DNA from: a virus
Strand: one strand, 5' to 3'
Length of the DNA stretch: 64,000 nucleotides
Virus record (IMG/VR): IMGVR_UViG_3300032307_000370
Coordinates: 1-64,000 of that record
The notes under the pieces are model-generated. The model did no database searches. It saw only the letters and a program-made list of their open reading frames with translations, and was not told the origin of the DNA. A program made the position numbers and the translations under genes. Shown piece after piece: positions 1-28,274 of this stretch. Within the stretch, counting starts at the first letter, position 1. The number at the start of each line of letters is the position of its first letter.

Positions 1-663
1 ACTAACGGAACTAATGGTTCAAGTGGGACCAACGGTACAAGCGGTACGAATGGTACTTCAGGTGTTAGTGGGGCTTCGGGTACTAGTGGAACAAATGGTA
101 CTTCGGGAACTGGTTTTAACACCATATCACCAACAACCGCAAATAACATACTTACCGCCAACGGAACACCAAATAGTGCCGATAGCGAACCTAACTTAAC
201 TTTTGATGGTAACGTATTAAACGTTACGGGATCAATAGTTCAAACAGGTGGGGGTTATTCATTAATTAATAATCCAACGACCATTTTAACTGGTAATGGA
301 GGATATGGGGACATTGTGACTTTTGGAACAGGAACATTAAGTGCCGGTCAACTTTATTATTATAATAGTTCAGGAGCTTGGGTTGCTGCAGACGCGGATT
401 CGGTGACAACATCTAGTGGTTTATTAGGTATAGCATTAGGATCGGCACCTTCAAATGGTATTGTTTTAAGGGGGTATGTAAGAAATACTTCATACACATT
501 TGCAACCGCAGATATATTATATGTGTCAACAACCGCAGGATCAATTACTTCAACGCAACCTTCAGGATCGGGAGATATTGTTAGAATAGTTGGGTATATG
601 ATAGATTCCTCAACTGATGTTTTATTCTTTAACCCTGATAATACATTCATTGAATTATCTTAA
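1..663 (+). CDS. Collagen-like (Gly-X-Y) fibre/decoration protein, 5'-truncated by the window edge
   Basis: Frame 1 is open from base 1 (TNGTNGSSGTNGTSGTNGTSGVSGASGTSGTNGTSG...) and in frame with the tracked ORF 316..663. The C-terminal ~110 aa (GQLYYYNSSGAWVAADA...LLGIAL...LYVSTTAGSITSTQP) resembles capsid-decoration/fibre-tip domains. Confidence 0.7.
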   Translation, partial: TNGTNGSSGTNGTSGTNGTSGVSGASGTSGTNGTSGTGFNTISPTTANNILTANGTPNSADSEPNLTFDGNVLNVTGSIVQTGGGYSLINNPTTILTGNGGYGDIVTFGTGTLSAGQLYYYNSSGAWVAADADSVTTSSGLLGIALGSAPSNGIVLRGYVRNTSYTFATADILYVSTTAGSITSTQPSGSGDIVRIVGYMIDSSTDVLFFNPDNTFIELS

Positions 664-696
664 TTTATAAAAGGTCATTTATTTTTCTTGTTTGAG

Positions 697-704
697 TATT
701 TATA
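697..704 (+). promoter_or_regulatory. Putative late-promoter motif TATTTATA
   Basis: Lies 12 nt before ATG 717. The same octamer recurs 11-14 nt before ATGs at 5752, 8827, 19792, 41758, 46153 and 58107. Confidence 0.65.
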
Positions 705-716
705 ATATATTATATT

Positions 717-23610: not shown

Positions 23611-23636
23611 AATTAAAGAAACAAACGATATAAAAA

Positions 23637-26600
23637 ATGAATTATGATTTTAATTTTATTGGTTATTACAACTCAAAACCTTCTTGGGTGGCCTATGATG
23701 GTGCAACACCATTAACAATTAGATGGAACTCAAATGGTTATTGGGAAATGATCGGATGGGAGGGTATCTTTTGTGGAGAACCAAGATCAACAGATAGCGA
23801 CTCTTTTCCTGATACAGGTTGGTACATATATGATCCGAATAATAATTGCTCTGACACATCATTTGATGTTTCCATGGGGTCTTGCCCTTTACCTGGAGTA
23901 GCAACATTCCAATCCTGTTGTGATTCAAATGTTATTATTCGTGTAAGTGATGTACCGAGTAGTTTTTTTCCATTATCAAATAATTCATATTTATTACAAT
24001 CAAGTGGTTTTGTGGGGTGTGTAAACCCTGCAGACCTTTCATTAACACCAACTATTTCAGTTGCTTTTATTGATTTAATTGAACAAATAGGTGGGTGTGG
24101 TCCTTGTACGATAGATTACCCATGTGTTGATCCTATTATATGTCCTGACTGTGAGTATGTCGCTAATTTACCGGAATTAGATAATTCTTATACGTATTTA
24201 AATGGTTTAACAATAAGTGCATCGGGATCAGGAAGCGTTACGGTGTATGACCCATCATATGGACCTTTAGGTGAAGGATGTAACTTTACCTCAAATCTAA
24301 TTGGGCCTATATGGTTAGGTCAAAATGGGTCATTTACATATACTTTAACTTTTAGTTCTCCGGTTAATAATATTGCAATAAGATTATGGTTAATAAATCT
24401 TGGGGAGACATTTACGTTTACCACAAATGCCGGTGACCCCACTTTAATTTCTTGTGATAATTGTTGTGTTGATATAAATGGAAATATTGTTGGAAGAACT
24501 GCAGAGTGTGATTCACCAACTAGTAGTGATACGGGTATCGGTCTTATTAGGATTTCTTCAATATCAACGTTTACAGTTTTAACAATAACAGGACCGGGTG
24601 GAGGTAACGGATCAATTATTGATATATGTGAAGATTCTCTTACTCCAATTATAAGTCCAACACCTACCCCAACACCAACAATTATTCCTCCAACACCAAC
24701 CCCAACACCTGTTTGTCCAATATGTCCTAATGTAAGTACCTTACCTCCGGTAGGATCATCAGTTATTATTAATGGTGTTACTGTTACGGCATCAGGTTTT
24801 GGTAATATAGTGTCAACAACATTTAGTGGTGTACTTGCTTGGTGTATGACACCACCTGGATCCGCATTAAATACCATATTTTTAGGTTCAGGTGTTGGAC
24901 CAACATCATTTACCTATATATTAACTTTTAGTTCTCCTGTAAATAATATTGTTATAAGATTAATAAATTATAGTATAACACCTTCAAATACCGAATCGTT
25001 TACTTTTACAACAAATACCGGAAATCCAACATTATCTTCTTGTGATTATTGTTGTGCCACAATAAATGGAAATGTAGTTACTGCAACATATTGCCCATCA
25101 GGATCCCCTGACCCACAAAATGGAGGAGGAACATTTACTATTTCCAACCCATCACCATTTACGAGTTTATCAATAAGTGGTCCTGGAGGTGCGGCGGGAA
25201 CCATAGTAGATATATGTACCGACTCTGTTCAACCACCGGTCACACCAACCCCAACCCCAACTGTAACACCAACAGATCCACCTCCAACACAGAGTAACAC
25301 TCCAACACCAACACCTGAACCAATTAATGTGGATTGTTTTCCATTAATAATGACAAGGTTAGATACATCATCACCGTTTTCTGTTGGTCTTTATTCTTAT
25401 AATCCAACATTAAATATAACAACATATCTCAATTTACCACAATCTTTAAATATGTTAGGTCAATCCATGACAAATACCTCAACAAAATTATGGATATGTC
25501 AAGACACAGTAGGAATAAGAGAATGGAATATCACATTAAACCCTTGGAGTGCGGTATGGTCTAGAGATATTGCCCCACCAAGTGCTATCCCACCACCATT
25601 TAATTGGTTAGCCGCAGCATTGTGTGTTTATAGAGACCCAATAACAAATATTGTTAATCCTAATCTATTAGTATCTGAGGGATTCGGTAACACAGGTTTT
25701 GATATTGTATTGGTGGATATTAGTGGGTCTGTTTGGTCCAAAACTACATTATATCAATTAAGTAATTTATCAAGTGATAGACAAATAAGTGAAGTTGTTA
25801 TGAATAACAACGGTAAAATGATTACAATAGGATTTGATACAACAACAAATCAAAAATATGTAACACAATTTCATTACGTTGGGGGGTCTTGGCAAGTACA
25901 AATAGATATTCCGATCCCAATAACAACTTACATACATTCATTTTTCCAATGGAATGGGTTCTTTTATATTGGGTCATTTACTGGCGAACTTTATACCATT
26001 CAAACTTCACCTCCATACACAACTTCTTATCTTGGAAACTTTTTACAAATTAGATCTTTTGATTCGGGTCAAGACCCTGATTGTATTACATTAGAATTTA
26101 CGGTTCCAGATGTTACACCAACCGTAACCCCAACGCCAACTGTAACCCCAACGGATCCACCACCAACACCAAGTATTACACCTACAAATACATTAACACC
26201 AACGGTAACACCAACAACAGGTGTTCCTTGTTTAGACGATTGTAACATATTATTAAATTCAGGTGGTGATATTTATTTATATGATTTTGTATTGGGTACA
26301 ACCACATATTTGAACCCATATATTGTTGGGTTTATACCTCCAAATAGTCCCGACATTGCTCACACATCAAATAAAATATTCATGTACACATTAACTCAAA
26401 TATATGAATATAATTACACAAATTGTCCATTTAGTGCAACTTACAATAGAACAATAAATATTCCGGCACCATATATGTTAGGAAATGGGTTAACGGCAAA
26501 AAATAATACGACCTTAATTAGTACTAATGGTTTCTCATTTGGAACTTTTTGGTATGAAATTGATATTACAAATACAATTGCAGCAACTAATCTTTACTAC

Positions 26601-28274
26601 CCATTTGTTAATAGAAATGTATTAGGTGATTTATTATATACAACAACAGGTAAACTATTAGCATTACTACAAGATACTTCTAATAACAAATTTTTATCTC
26701 AGTATAATTATTCAACCGGTGTTTTAGAAATTGATATAAATATTAATTCCATAAACACACCATACGGTTTGTTTATTTGGAATAATCAAATTTATATGAC
26801 TTCCGGATTTGGACAAATATATGAAGTTAATTTAAATTTCCCATATACCATAACATTAATACAAAATTTACCTGTTGGTATTGGTGGGGCATCAAGTATA
26901 CCAGAGTGTTCTGATAGCGAATTCTACACAAGTGGGGCAACCCCAACACCAACACCAACTGTAACACCAACACCAACTGTAACACCAACGGATCCACCAC
27001 CAACACCAAGTATTACTCCAACCAACACAAAAACACCAACAGTAACACCAACCAAAACAACCACTCAAACTCCAACGCCTACGTCTACACCAACCCCAAC
27101 TAATCCAATAGGTGGATGTTGTCCTGAAAATTATAATTTACCATATAAAAATCCGGTATCAATAAATGGTGTTACATTAATACCAACAAATATTGGATCT
27201 GTTAATCAAGGTTCATCCATAACTTTTGTTCCGTCATGTGAATCATCAACAATTACAATTACACAACCATTATTATTGGGTCAAAATTCATTCACATATA
27301 CAATATCTTTTAGTAATCCTGTAAATAATGTTACATTAAGATTATCAAATTATAGATTTTTACCTACAGGTGTTGACTCGTTTACGATTACAACAAATTC
27401 AGGTAATCCAACTATAACTTCATGTCAATACTGTTGCGCAACGATTGCCGGTAACGTGATTACCGCAACACAAGATTTAACAAACATATTTTGTAATAGC
27501 ACATTTGGTATTGGTAGTGGTTTATTTACTTTCACCGCAACCAATCCATTTACAGTATTAACAATATCAGGTCCGGGGAATGGATCTTCTGTGGTTTACG
27601 CATCGTTATGTGATTTTGATGCAATACCTGCAGTGACACCAACTCCAACCCCAACTTTAACATCAACACCAACTTCAACTCAAGAACCAATATATTTACC
27701 ATATTTAGTGAGAAATTGTTGTACAGGAGTTTCATTATATGCAAACTTACCAAGTTCATTTGTATCGGGTGATATTATCTCTGATACAAATAACAATTGT
27801 TATACTGTTATATCAGTACAAGTCGGTACTGTAACAATAGGATGGTCAAATGCAACATATAGTAGCTGTTTAGATTGTATTACTGAAAATCCTTGTGTTA
27901 CCCCAACACCAACACCAACTAAAACAAAAACACCAACACCAACTGTTACCCCAACTAAAACACCATCGGTAACTCTATCAAAAACACCAACACAAACACC
28001 AACAAAAACTGTAACTCCAACTAAAACACCAACTAAAACACCAACAAATACACCAACACCAACCTCAACCCCAAGTTGTTTTTATTATAGAATTGTTAAT
28101 AATAATGAAACAAAAGATGTCTCAATAACATTTACACCTTGTTGTGATACTGAGATATCTCCATTAATAATTTCAGCATTAGGCGCAACATCAATTTGTT
28201 CAAGCACAACACCATCAGTTCCGGCTAATGTTGTTGTTACTTTACTTGGGGCTTGTCCTACTTGTAGTCAATAA
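23637..28274 (+). CDS. Large modular Cys-rich protein with PT/TP linkers (putative tail fibre/adhesin)
   Basis: 1545 aa; three copies of an ~160-aa module ([26 protein letters not shown]), two propeller-like blocks and TP linkers. Confidence 0.7.

Follow-up and report, generated by a model that had tools for sequence, protein, structure and literature searches.

What does a tailed phage do with a row of glycosyltransferase (GT) genes set among genes for mucin-like proteins? The question is raised by positions 1–28,274 of the window analysed here, which is the first 64 kb of the 127,725-bp IMG/VR virus record IMGVR_UViG_3300032307_000370. The record (44% complete by CheckV; G+C 32%) represents an uncultured freshwater phage known from metagenome sequence. 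A sequence-only reading had described Thr/Pro-repeat (TP) proteins alternating with glycan-acting enzymes, and had proposed that the phage glycosylates its own virion proteins. We confirmed the observation itself, and the interpretation is partly supported. In our view the chances are about even that the region is a soluble phage protein-glycosylation island, in which a GT60-family enzyme would start O-glycans on Thr residues in the TP tracts of the phage's own fibre-like proteins, strain-variable enzymes would elaborate them and a TibC-type enzyme would form a side pathway. The acceptor proteins, sugars, virion location and biological role are what we infer from the genes.

The four TP proteins and the Ser/Thr-rich collagen-like open reading frame (ORF) were all present in the translations, as claimed. 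The TP proteins are encoded on the plus strand at 717–2717 (666 aa), 8827–10596 (589 aa), 19792–21681 (629 aa) and 23637–28274 (1545 aa). The collagen-like ORF (1–663, plus strand) is the 3′ part of a gene truncated by the contig end; it opens with ~12 Ser/Thr-rich G-x-y triplets and has a globular C-terminal domain, and its Pfam Collagen match (E 1.4e-4) fell below the cut-off. The first TP protein (33% Thr, 14% Pro; PHROG 15511) has a short N-domain, ~400 residues of TPTNTL-type repeats and Cys-rich modules, two of which, at its C-terminus, have six Cys residues each. The tracts are diverged tandem repeats with units of 18–138 nt and 67–83% matches (Tandem Repeats Finder). None of the four proteins is purely low-complexity: all are modular, with globular Cys-rich modules carried on TP or PT linkers. 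The second has six-Cys modules at residues 410–480 and 522–588 (C-terminal), the third an Ig-like N-domain (residues 1–~120), TP linkers and Cys modules, and the fourth repeated Cys-rich and larger globular modules with PT linkers between them.

The enzyme that heads the cassette falls in a family whose characterised members act on polypeptides. Its gene (10657–11904, plus strand), the first of a tightly packed operon, matches the GT60 polypeptide α-GlcNAc-transferase (GlcNAc, N-acetylglucosamine) family PF11397 at E 3.2e-73 (247.7 bits against a gathering score of 21). The protein carries the DxH motif as D92-S93-H94, with D and H invariant among 131 homologues. To our knowledge, no prokaryotic GT60 member has been characterised. 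GT60 and GT27 have in common polypeptide Ser/Thr O-glycosylation and the DxH motif (PMC7185993), and the GT60 enzyme TcOGNT1 forms GlcNAc-α-1-O-Thr on trypanosome mucins (PMC9472816). The phage enzyme has an additional ~100 conserved residues at its C-terminus, and no sequence relative was found in the PDB. Some relatives (P0122, P0124, P0125 and others) are giant, at 1600–2460 aa with up to 4–5 tandem GT60 domains. No prolyl 4-hydroxylase (P4H)-type oxygenase (2OG-FeII_Oxy_3) was found in four of the five genomes compared (G000, G002, G008 and G009); Thr is therefore favoured over hydroxyproline as the acceptor, and a hydroxyproline route appears unlikely from this gene content. The remaining genome, G006, belongs to a sister clade described below and has seven 2OG-Fe(II) oxygenase (PF13640) genes, clustered at 40.9–44.9 kb, 208.5–209.4 kb and 246.8 kb, which are absent from the window's clade.

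A second enzyme, of 974 aa (2769–5693, minus strand), combines three domains: GT4 (residues ~1–395), a TibC/Aah-like domain (408–746) and an FkbM methyltransferase (~756–974), as assigned with Pfam, TIGR04414 and PDB 4rap. The TibC-like domain cleared the Aah/TibC equivalog cut-off of TIGR04414 (NCBIfam; 296.9 bits versus 200) and aligned to TibC (4rap) at E 5.6e-73 over residues 428–746. In TibC, Asp110 is the catalytic base, Cys339/342/358/370 form the iron finger and Arg286, Trp305, Thr226 and Lys230 bind the sugar (PMC4358343). The phage domain keeps Asp110, Thr226, Lys230, Trp305 and all four cysteines, with SLGD aligning with TLGD and CHGC...WCP...FEC with CYGC...WCP...FEC. The assignment of two enzymes to protein-modifying families thus holds, for the TibC-like domain with its Asp and four Cys and for the GT60 enzyme with its DxH.

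Other counts in the sequence-only reading stood in part. Five of its roughly eight GT domains were above the Pfam or NCBIfam cut-offs: GT4, the TibC-like GT9, GT60, an HtrL_YibB domain in 17372–19753, and a GT9-family enzyme of 312 aa (7860–8798, plus strand; PF01075, 52 bits; NCBIfam) that is heptosyltransferase-like with weak similarity to TibC. The other three were found below threshold only, namely a GT90-like domain in gene 14551 and GT2-like domains in gene 15758 and at the C-terminus of 17372. Two of three methyltransferase domains were firm (both FkbM), the third being a weak Methyltransf_24 match (E 0.11). The HAD-nucleotidyltransferase gene (12331–13686, plus strand) encodes a fusion of a HAD domain of β-phosphoglucomutase type, which is firm (Pfam, NCBIfam), with a sugar-1-phosphate nucleotidylyltransferase half that depends on partial RmlA-type matches (E 4e-15); the fusion probably supplies a nucleoside diphosphate sugar. 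Outside the island, a putative GT of 326 aa (genome 86106–87086) had no PDB or Pfam match. No membrane segment or signal peptide was detected in the 21 ORFs of positions 1–31.5 kb (maximum 19-residue Kyte–Doolittle mean ≤1.53), and all island enzymes and TP proteins are predicted to be soluble. The same 21 ORFs contained no Pfam families for a lipid-carrier initiating transferase, a flippase or ABC transporter, a polymerase or a ligase.

The TP genes share an upstream motif with genes of the tail. The sequence TATTTATA lies 12–13 nt 5′ of the ATG of TP genes 717 (12 nt; motif at 697–704, plus strand), 8827 and 19792 (13 nt in both) and of the LamG gene 5752, and 12–35 nt 5′ of the sheath gene 38357, the gp19-like tube gene 42716 and genes 46153, 79492 and 87115. 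This agrees with what had been claimed for three TP genes and for the sheath and tube genes, and the distance is fixed. The 7-mer TATTTAT occurred at −50 to −15 in 20 of 106 ORFs, against ~1.5 expected. The extended form (G/A)TATTTATA has a constant offset of −19 to −21 from the ATG in this region (window sites 697, 5731, 8806, 19771, 32649 on the minus strand, 38316, 42676 and 46131), which implies very short leaders. It differs from TATAAATA of T4, and we consider it a candidate late promoter of this phage group. As the motif also precedes the DnaB-like helicase gene 62743, it is not exclusive to structural genes; a late or structural role is likely. It was absent from all GT genes. Genes 10657 to 19753 overlap or abut, and no terminator-like hairpin was found between TP gene 8827 and the GT60 gene. 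A sigma-70 promoter scan gave hits at chance (129 sites versus 124 ± 12). A bidirectional terminator-like hairpin (2737–2763) separates the convergent genes 717 and 2769–5693.

Two modules connect the TP proteins to fibres and tails. The first, the six-Cys module of ~68 aa (CC..G..C..CxxC..PC), occurs in eight copies in five proteins of this genome: the four TP proteins (window 2298–2714, 10054–10590, 20812–21012, 23907–24125 and 27702–27896) and, at its C-terminal tip, a fibre-like protein with SprB repeats from the tail-fibre cluster (genome 85862–86062). Relatives carry 58 unique copies of it; 14 of these lie at the very C-terminus of the protein. The AlphaFold2 model is confident (predicted local distance difference test, pLDDT, 94). 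A PDB fold search with it was uninformative (best Z 4.3); the look-alikes are uncharacterised phage proteins, and the atlas neighbours are unnamed viral clusters with scores ≤0.89. The module is a candidate new tip or binding domain of phages, possibly stabilised by disulfides or metal. The second is the N-terminal ~120 residues of 19792, which are conserved in 70 of 80 related loci, either standing alone (119–148 aa) or fused to variable TP tails. Its model is Ig-like (pLDDT 84), and the top folds were phage baseplate and neck proteins (80alpha, NF5, TP901-1 BppU; Z 7.3–7.9). The matches to BppU (VIA Z 7.6 for 4v96_AA, with an rmsd of 3.1 over 101 aligned residues, and 7.3 for 3uh8_A) were tied with generic Ig-like domains, and the best Foldseek match was the NF5 baseplate (E 1e-3). 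On this evidence the TP proteins are likely to be fibre-like parts of the virion. The tail sheath (38357–41674) is unusually long at 1105 aa, with its sheath-family match confined to the last ~290 residues, and contains a short TP tract of ~23–26 residues, which suggests inserted or displayed domains.

The arrangement of TP genes and enzymes recurs in related phages. GT60 belongs to the core genes of a very abundant clade, with 198 viral contigs and, at 90% identity, >7000 clusters; the family as a whole is very large across bacteria and phages, numbering 4738 clusters at 50% identity. Over 80 related loci the gene order was one or more variable TP proteins, GT60, 1–9 variable genes, FkbM/HtrL, a 19792-type protein and the DNA polymerase, and the core layout of GT60, variable slot and FkbM/HtrL was seen in ~116 related loci. 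A TP-tract ORF was directly upstream of GT60 on the same strand in 57 of 79 loci, and within two genes of it in 64 of 80. These upstream TP proteins are often non-orthologous between loci. The slot between GT60 and FkbM/HtrL is hypervariable, with 278 ORFs in 94 protein clusters. Its GTs are drawn from GT25, GT2, GT10, GT34, GT7, GT31, GT32, PLOD-GT and RXYLT1, and its other genes include several methyltransferase families, a UDP-GlcNAc 2-epimerase, a DegT aminotransferase, a carbamoyltransferase, GNAT proteins and nucleotidyltransferases. Such a slot has the sequence signature of a diversifying glycan-synthesis locus whose first and last steps are conserved. TP neighbours were also present in a second lineage (L101–104) and in a cassette embedded among tail-fibre genes (L097/98). 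TP adjacency is thus distributed over one large clade, a minimum of one further lineage (L101–104) and the tail-fibre-embedded variant.

The expected co-occurrence of TibC-like, GT60 and TP genes in relatives was therefore borne out for TP next to GT60, in most of the window's clade, and not for the TibC-like unit, which was found in about one fifth of the loci. There it always takes the form GT4-TibC(-FkbM), divergent from the TP gene preceding GT60. In bacterial GT60 loci (n = 63, <56% identity; Gemmatimonadota, Acidobacteriota, Verrucomicrobiota, Proteobacteria and Bacteroidota), TP ORFs were ~3-fold enriched within two genes of GT60 (10 of 240 near versus 7 of 512 far; Fisher p = 0.03). 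A giant-virus contig (L085, IMGVR GVMAG-S-1035124-57, 51% GC), binned as a metagenome-assembled genome (MAG), also carries a GT60 homologue (53% identity). In our quick tree it clusters, on a long branch, with the TP-less sister clade described next; by its sequence this homologue hints at shared gene pools only.

Several results weigh against self-glycosylation of TP tracts. We gathered distant GT60 loci by scans seeded with more distant homologues and placed them in a quick tree. A sister clade (L084, L086–L095, L109 and L111; 99% support in the SH-like approximate likelihood ratio test, GT60 57–67% identical) keeps GT60, variable GTs and FkbM/HtrL and has no TP ORF within 10 kb, and L118/119 resemble it in this respect. 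A GT cluster independent of TP proteins, which the sequence-only reading had named as evidence against itself, is thus found in part of the relatives. Whole genomes gave a similar picture. In G002, from the window's clade, 16 of 312 ORFs have TP tracts and most lie beside the glyco-island or in the fibre cluster. G006, from the sister clade, has 3 of 271, all >110 kb from the cassette. In the complete genome G009 the count is 1 of 371 (a 70-residue tract); it has GT60 and a 148-aa 19792-type gene and no variable GTs. The conservation of GT60 therefore extends beyond that of its TP neighbours, and as few as one or two evolutionary events may account for the adjacency of TP genes. Across four whole genomes, TP-ORF counts showed no simple dose relation to glyco-gene counts, and in bacteria a TP neighbour was found in just 8 of the 63 GT60 loci. 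The TibC-like gene is accessory, being absent from all three of these complete or near-complete relatives (G002, G006 and G009). In its domain (window 3455–4470, minus strand), Val stands in place of the heptose-binding Arg286, and Gly and Glu replace Pro300 and Ser294, two stereoselectivity positions; the sugar donor may accordingly be something other than ADP-heptose. TibC-type enzymes are paired with an autotransporter adhesin that has 19-aa repeats; by Pfam the window contains no autotransporter or β-barrel gene, and the neighbours of the TibC-like gene are TP, LamG and collagen-like genes. The fold scores of the 19792 N-domain are within the range usual for any Ig-like domain, and PT linkers commonly serve as unglycosylated spacers. 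The proposal that the phage glycosylates its own proteins accordingly draws support from the soluble enzymes, the motif shared with tail genes, the six-Cys link and the TP synteny, and loses some to the sister clade, G006 and G009.

If phage proteins are glycosylated, the TP tracts could be mere flexible linkers and the acceptors could lie elsewhere: in the protein with the 19792 Ig-like N-domain, in collagen-like or β-helical fibres, or, as for mycobacteriophages, in the capsid or tail tube. We regard this as unlikely, and as the best placed of the alternatives. It would account for a GT60 gene that remains core in phages whose TP proteins are few or far away (G009, G006 and the sister clade), and the 19792-type N-domain does follow the cassette in 70 of 80 loci, at times alone without a TP tract. 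TibC itself modifies folded β-helices, not mucin-like tracts (PMC4358343), and one relative has a PLOD-type collagen GT in its slot. However, the gene upstream of GT60 stays TP-type though its identity changes, no 19792-like gene could be detected beside the cassette of the sister clade either, and the characterised GT60 Golgi enzymes modify Thr-rich mucin tracts (PMC9472816).

A somewhat less probable alternative is that the island remodels host envelope glycans, such as the lipopolysaccharide (LPS) or lipooligosaccharide (LOS) core, capsule or glycolipids, during a long infection, for example to block superinfection, and that its proximity to fibre genes reflects a shared hypervariable region. 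The GT9, GT25, GT4 and HtrL/YibB families typically serve in building the LPS/LOS core, a task likewise done by soluble or peripheral enzymes, and this counts against protein acceptors as well. Core GTs are soluble, and the GT9, GT25 and HtrL families are of LPS type, which leaves the envelope explanation some probability. Serotype conversion is typical of temperate rather than T4-like lytic phages, which lowers it. The TP-less cassettes of the sister clade fit an envelope role, and surveys of huge phages class such GTs as envelope-associated auxiliary genes (bioRxiv 10.64898/2026.10.24.761521). Against this, the 21 ORFs include no polyprenyl-phosphate transferase, flippase, polymerase, ligase or membrane protein, and the head enzyme, GT60, and the best-matched accessory one, the TibC equivalog, belong to families whose characterised members act on polypeptides (PMC9472816, PMC7185993, PMC4358343).

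The cassette is immediately 5′ of the family B DNA polymerase gene, a position that would favour DNA as the target. No DNA-acting member of the GT60 or TibC families is known. Hypermodification of phage DNA with sugars to evade restriction is very improbable: DNA-glycosylating GTs of phages are diverse and often near replication genes, with GT-A/GT-B enzymes beside 5mYOX or thymidylate-synthase-like genes (bioRxiv 10.1101/2023.12.21.572611), and ThyA-family genes are present in G002 and G006, but no hydroxymethylase, C5-methyltransferase or TET/JBP gene was found in or near the cluster, ThyA (PF00303) is absent from G000, G008 and G009, of which the complete genomes G008 and G009 both retain GT60, and Tet_JBP (PF12851) was not found in five genomes, where control genomes gave no match either.

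How would self-glycosylation of TP proteins proceed? Late in infection the phage would make modular proteins in the host cytoplasm, each anchored by its N-domain, extended by long stalks of Thr/Pro and bearing small six-Cys modules as 'beads' or tips. The conserved GT60 enzyme would initiate O-glycans on TP-tract Thr, by analogy with GlcNAc-α-1-O-Thr on trypanosome mucins. Enzymes from the hypervariable slot would extend or decorate the glycan; here the GT90-, GT2- and HtrL-like enzymes would have this task, with the donor supplied by the HAD-nucleotidyltransferase. FkbM methyltransferases would cap or modify it. Ser/Thr residues of a folded fibre protein may receive a second type of O-linked sugar, from the accessory GT4-TibC-FkbM protein and from the small GT9 enzyme. 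Virion fibres would end up with a glycan coat that varies between strains, a phage parallel to the diversity of O-antigens. Extended to the whole clade, the proposal is that a very abundant group of freshwater jumbo phages may run cytoplasmic mucin-type O-glycosylation with a GT60 initiator, an O-antigen-like variable set and an optional TibC-type pathway, giving a strain-specific coat on Thr/Pro-stalk fibres; we put this slightly short of an even chance. A function in shielding, receptor binding or buoyancy is speculation.

Virion glycosylation by a virus's own enzymes is already known, from mycobacteriophages and giant viruses. What would be new are the enzyme families, the mucin-like acceptors, the hypervariable glycan locus and the Bacteroidota jumbo-phage host. 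Protist GT60 enzymes (T. cruzi TcOGNT1 on mucin Thr; Dictyostelium and Toxoplasma Gnt1 on Skp1 hydroxyproline) share PF11397 and DxH with the phage enzyme, and the latter is soluble, sits beside Thr-rich mucin-like candidate acceptors and has extending GTs after it. Unlike them, it is phage-encoded, would work in the bacterial cytoplasm with no P4H partner, has the extra conserved C-terminus, and has an acceptor and donor that are predicted only. TibC/Aah heptosyltransferases (BAHT; PDB 4rap) form a dodecameric ring and use ADP-heptose as donor. The phage domain resembles them in passing the equivalog cut-off and in its catalytic and iron-finger residues, and differs in being fused between GT4 and FkbM, in having no autotransporter substrate, in its probable Bacteroidota host and in its accessory status. 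Glycosylation of fibrils or capsids in Mimivirus and chloroviruses relies on autonomous machinery with sugar-nucleotide supply, many 'eukaryote-like' GT-A families and clade-variable clusters. The island likewise has virus-encoded glycosylation genes with sugar-nucleotide supply, many GT-A families of 'eukaryote-like' kind and clade-variable clusters, but in a tailed bacteriophage and with different acceptor proteins. In mycobacteriophages, too, GTs encoded by the phage are believed to act in the cytoplasm on structural proteins of the phage itself, and glycans have been measured on the C-termini of capsid and tail-tube subunits (Freeman et al. 2023, cited in PMC12619734). By comparison with that report, the candidates here are mucin-like stalks of fibre-like proteins, the enzyme families are others, there is a hypervariable slot and the glycans are predicted from genes; the capsid gene lies outside the window, and no Ser/Thr-rich C-terminal extension was noted in the tube-like gene 42716.

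If the proposal is right, phages of Gram-negative bacteria would have their first known system of this kind, and GT60 enzymes from prokaryotes or viruses their first assigned function. Both the very large uncharacterised bacterial and viral branch of GT60 and a TibC-like enzyme unconnected with autotransporters would gain a first substrate to test. The fibres of tailed Bacteroidota phages would bear a fast-diversifying glycan coat made by the phage itself, with effects on host recognition, particle stability, grazing and adsorption losses in lakes and the evolution of phage 'serotypes'. The enzymes could become tools for cytoplasmic O-glycosylation in bacteria.

Which phage carries the island? 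A megablast search of 25 kb against cultured phages gave no DNA-level matches, and the DNA polymerase is only 23–28% identical to those of cultured phages (Salinibacter and Nostoc phages). The record encodes a contractile T4-like tail (sheath PHROG 23, gp19-like tube and a T4 baseplate protein), a family B DNA polymerase, helicases, UvsX-like and gp32-like proteins, and fibre-like proteins with SprB repeats elsewhere in the record. Metagenomic relatives reach 270–322 kb and carry DnaK, some with terminal repeats; HSP70 was not found in this record, itself 44% complete. Moraphages are freshwater jumbo phages of Bacteroidota with four core GT orthologous groups (PMC12619734). The phage fits them as a candidate member in general traits, namely the size, freshwater origin, T4-like tail, family B polymerase and DnaK of its relatives, and its host phylum is probably Bacteroidota. 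Unlike the present analysis, PMC12619734 draws no connection of GTs to TP proteins, GT60 or TibC. The nearest 'bacterial' GT60 matches (64–81% identity; L167–L172 and L183) lie on contigs of Saprospiraceae, Chitinophagia and Bacteroidia MAGs, one of them 230 kb long; these are probably phage contigs mis-binned into MAGs and give a weak hint of the host. Pieces of the region were found in freshwater metagenomes of a second study, near-identical but short. Contigs of that study showed many 'joints' in the TP tract, which we did not count as length polymorphism since their flanks were <32 nt.

The remaining genes of the island, all on the plus strand, are as follows. The LamG/concanavalin-like protein (5752–7341, 529 aa) is similar to the virion structural PHROG 8510. 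Four variable-slot genes (13686–17362), each in just 4–20 of the 80 related loci, encode a 290-aa protein with no family match (13686), the GT90-like protein (14551), a 123-aa protein (15406) and the GT2-like protein with a possible methyltransferase C-terminus (15758). They are followed by the cassette's closing gene (17372–19753), present in 73 of 80 loci, whose 793-aa product joins FkbM and HtrL/YibB-like parts to the weak GT2-like C-terminus. Within the gene run 19792–23637, a 637-aa protein (21697–23610) fuses a protease-like N-terminal part (PHROG 20754) to a PEBP domain (PF01161, E 1.4e-11); its gene is flanked by TP genes and has no promoter motif of its own. A 145-aa ORF (11901–12338; PHROG 34507, with no annotated function) overlaps the end of the GT60 gene and occurs in 3 of 80 related loci, and its N-terminus resembles the 'SHRG' start of glycerophosphodiester phosphodiesterases.

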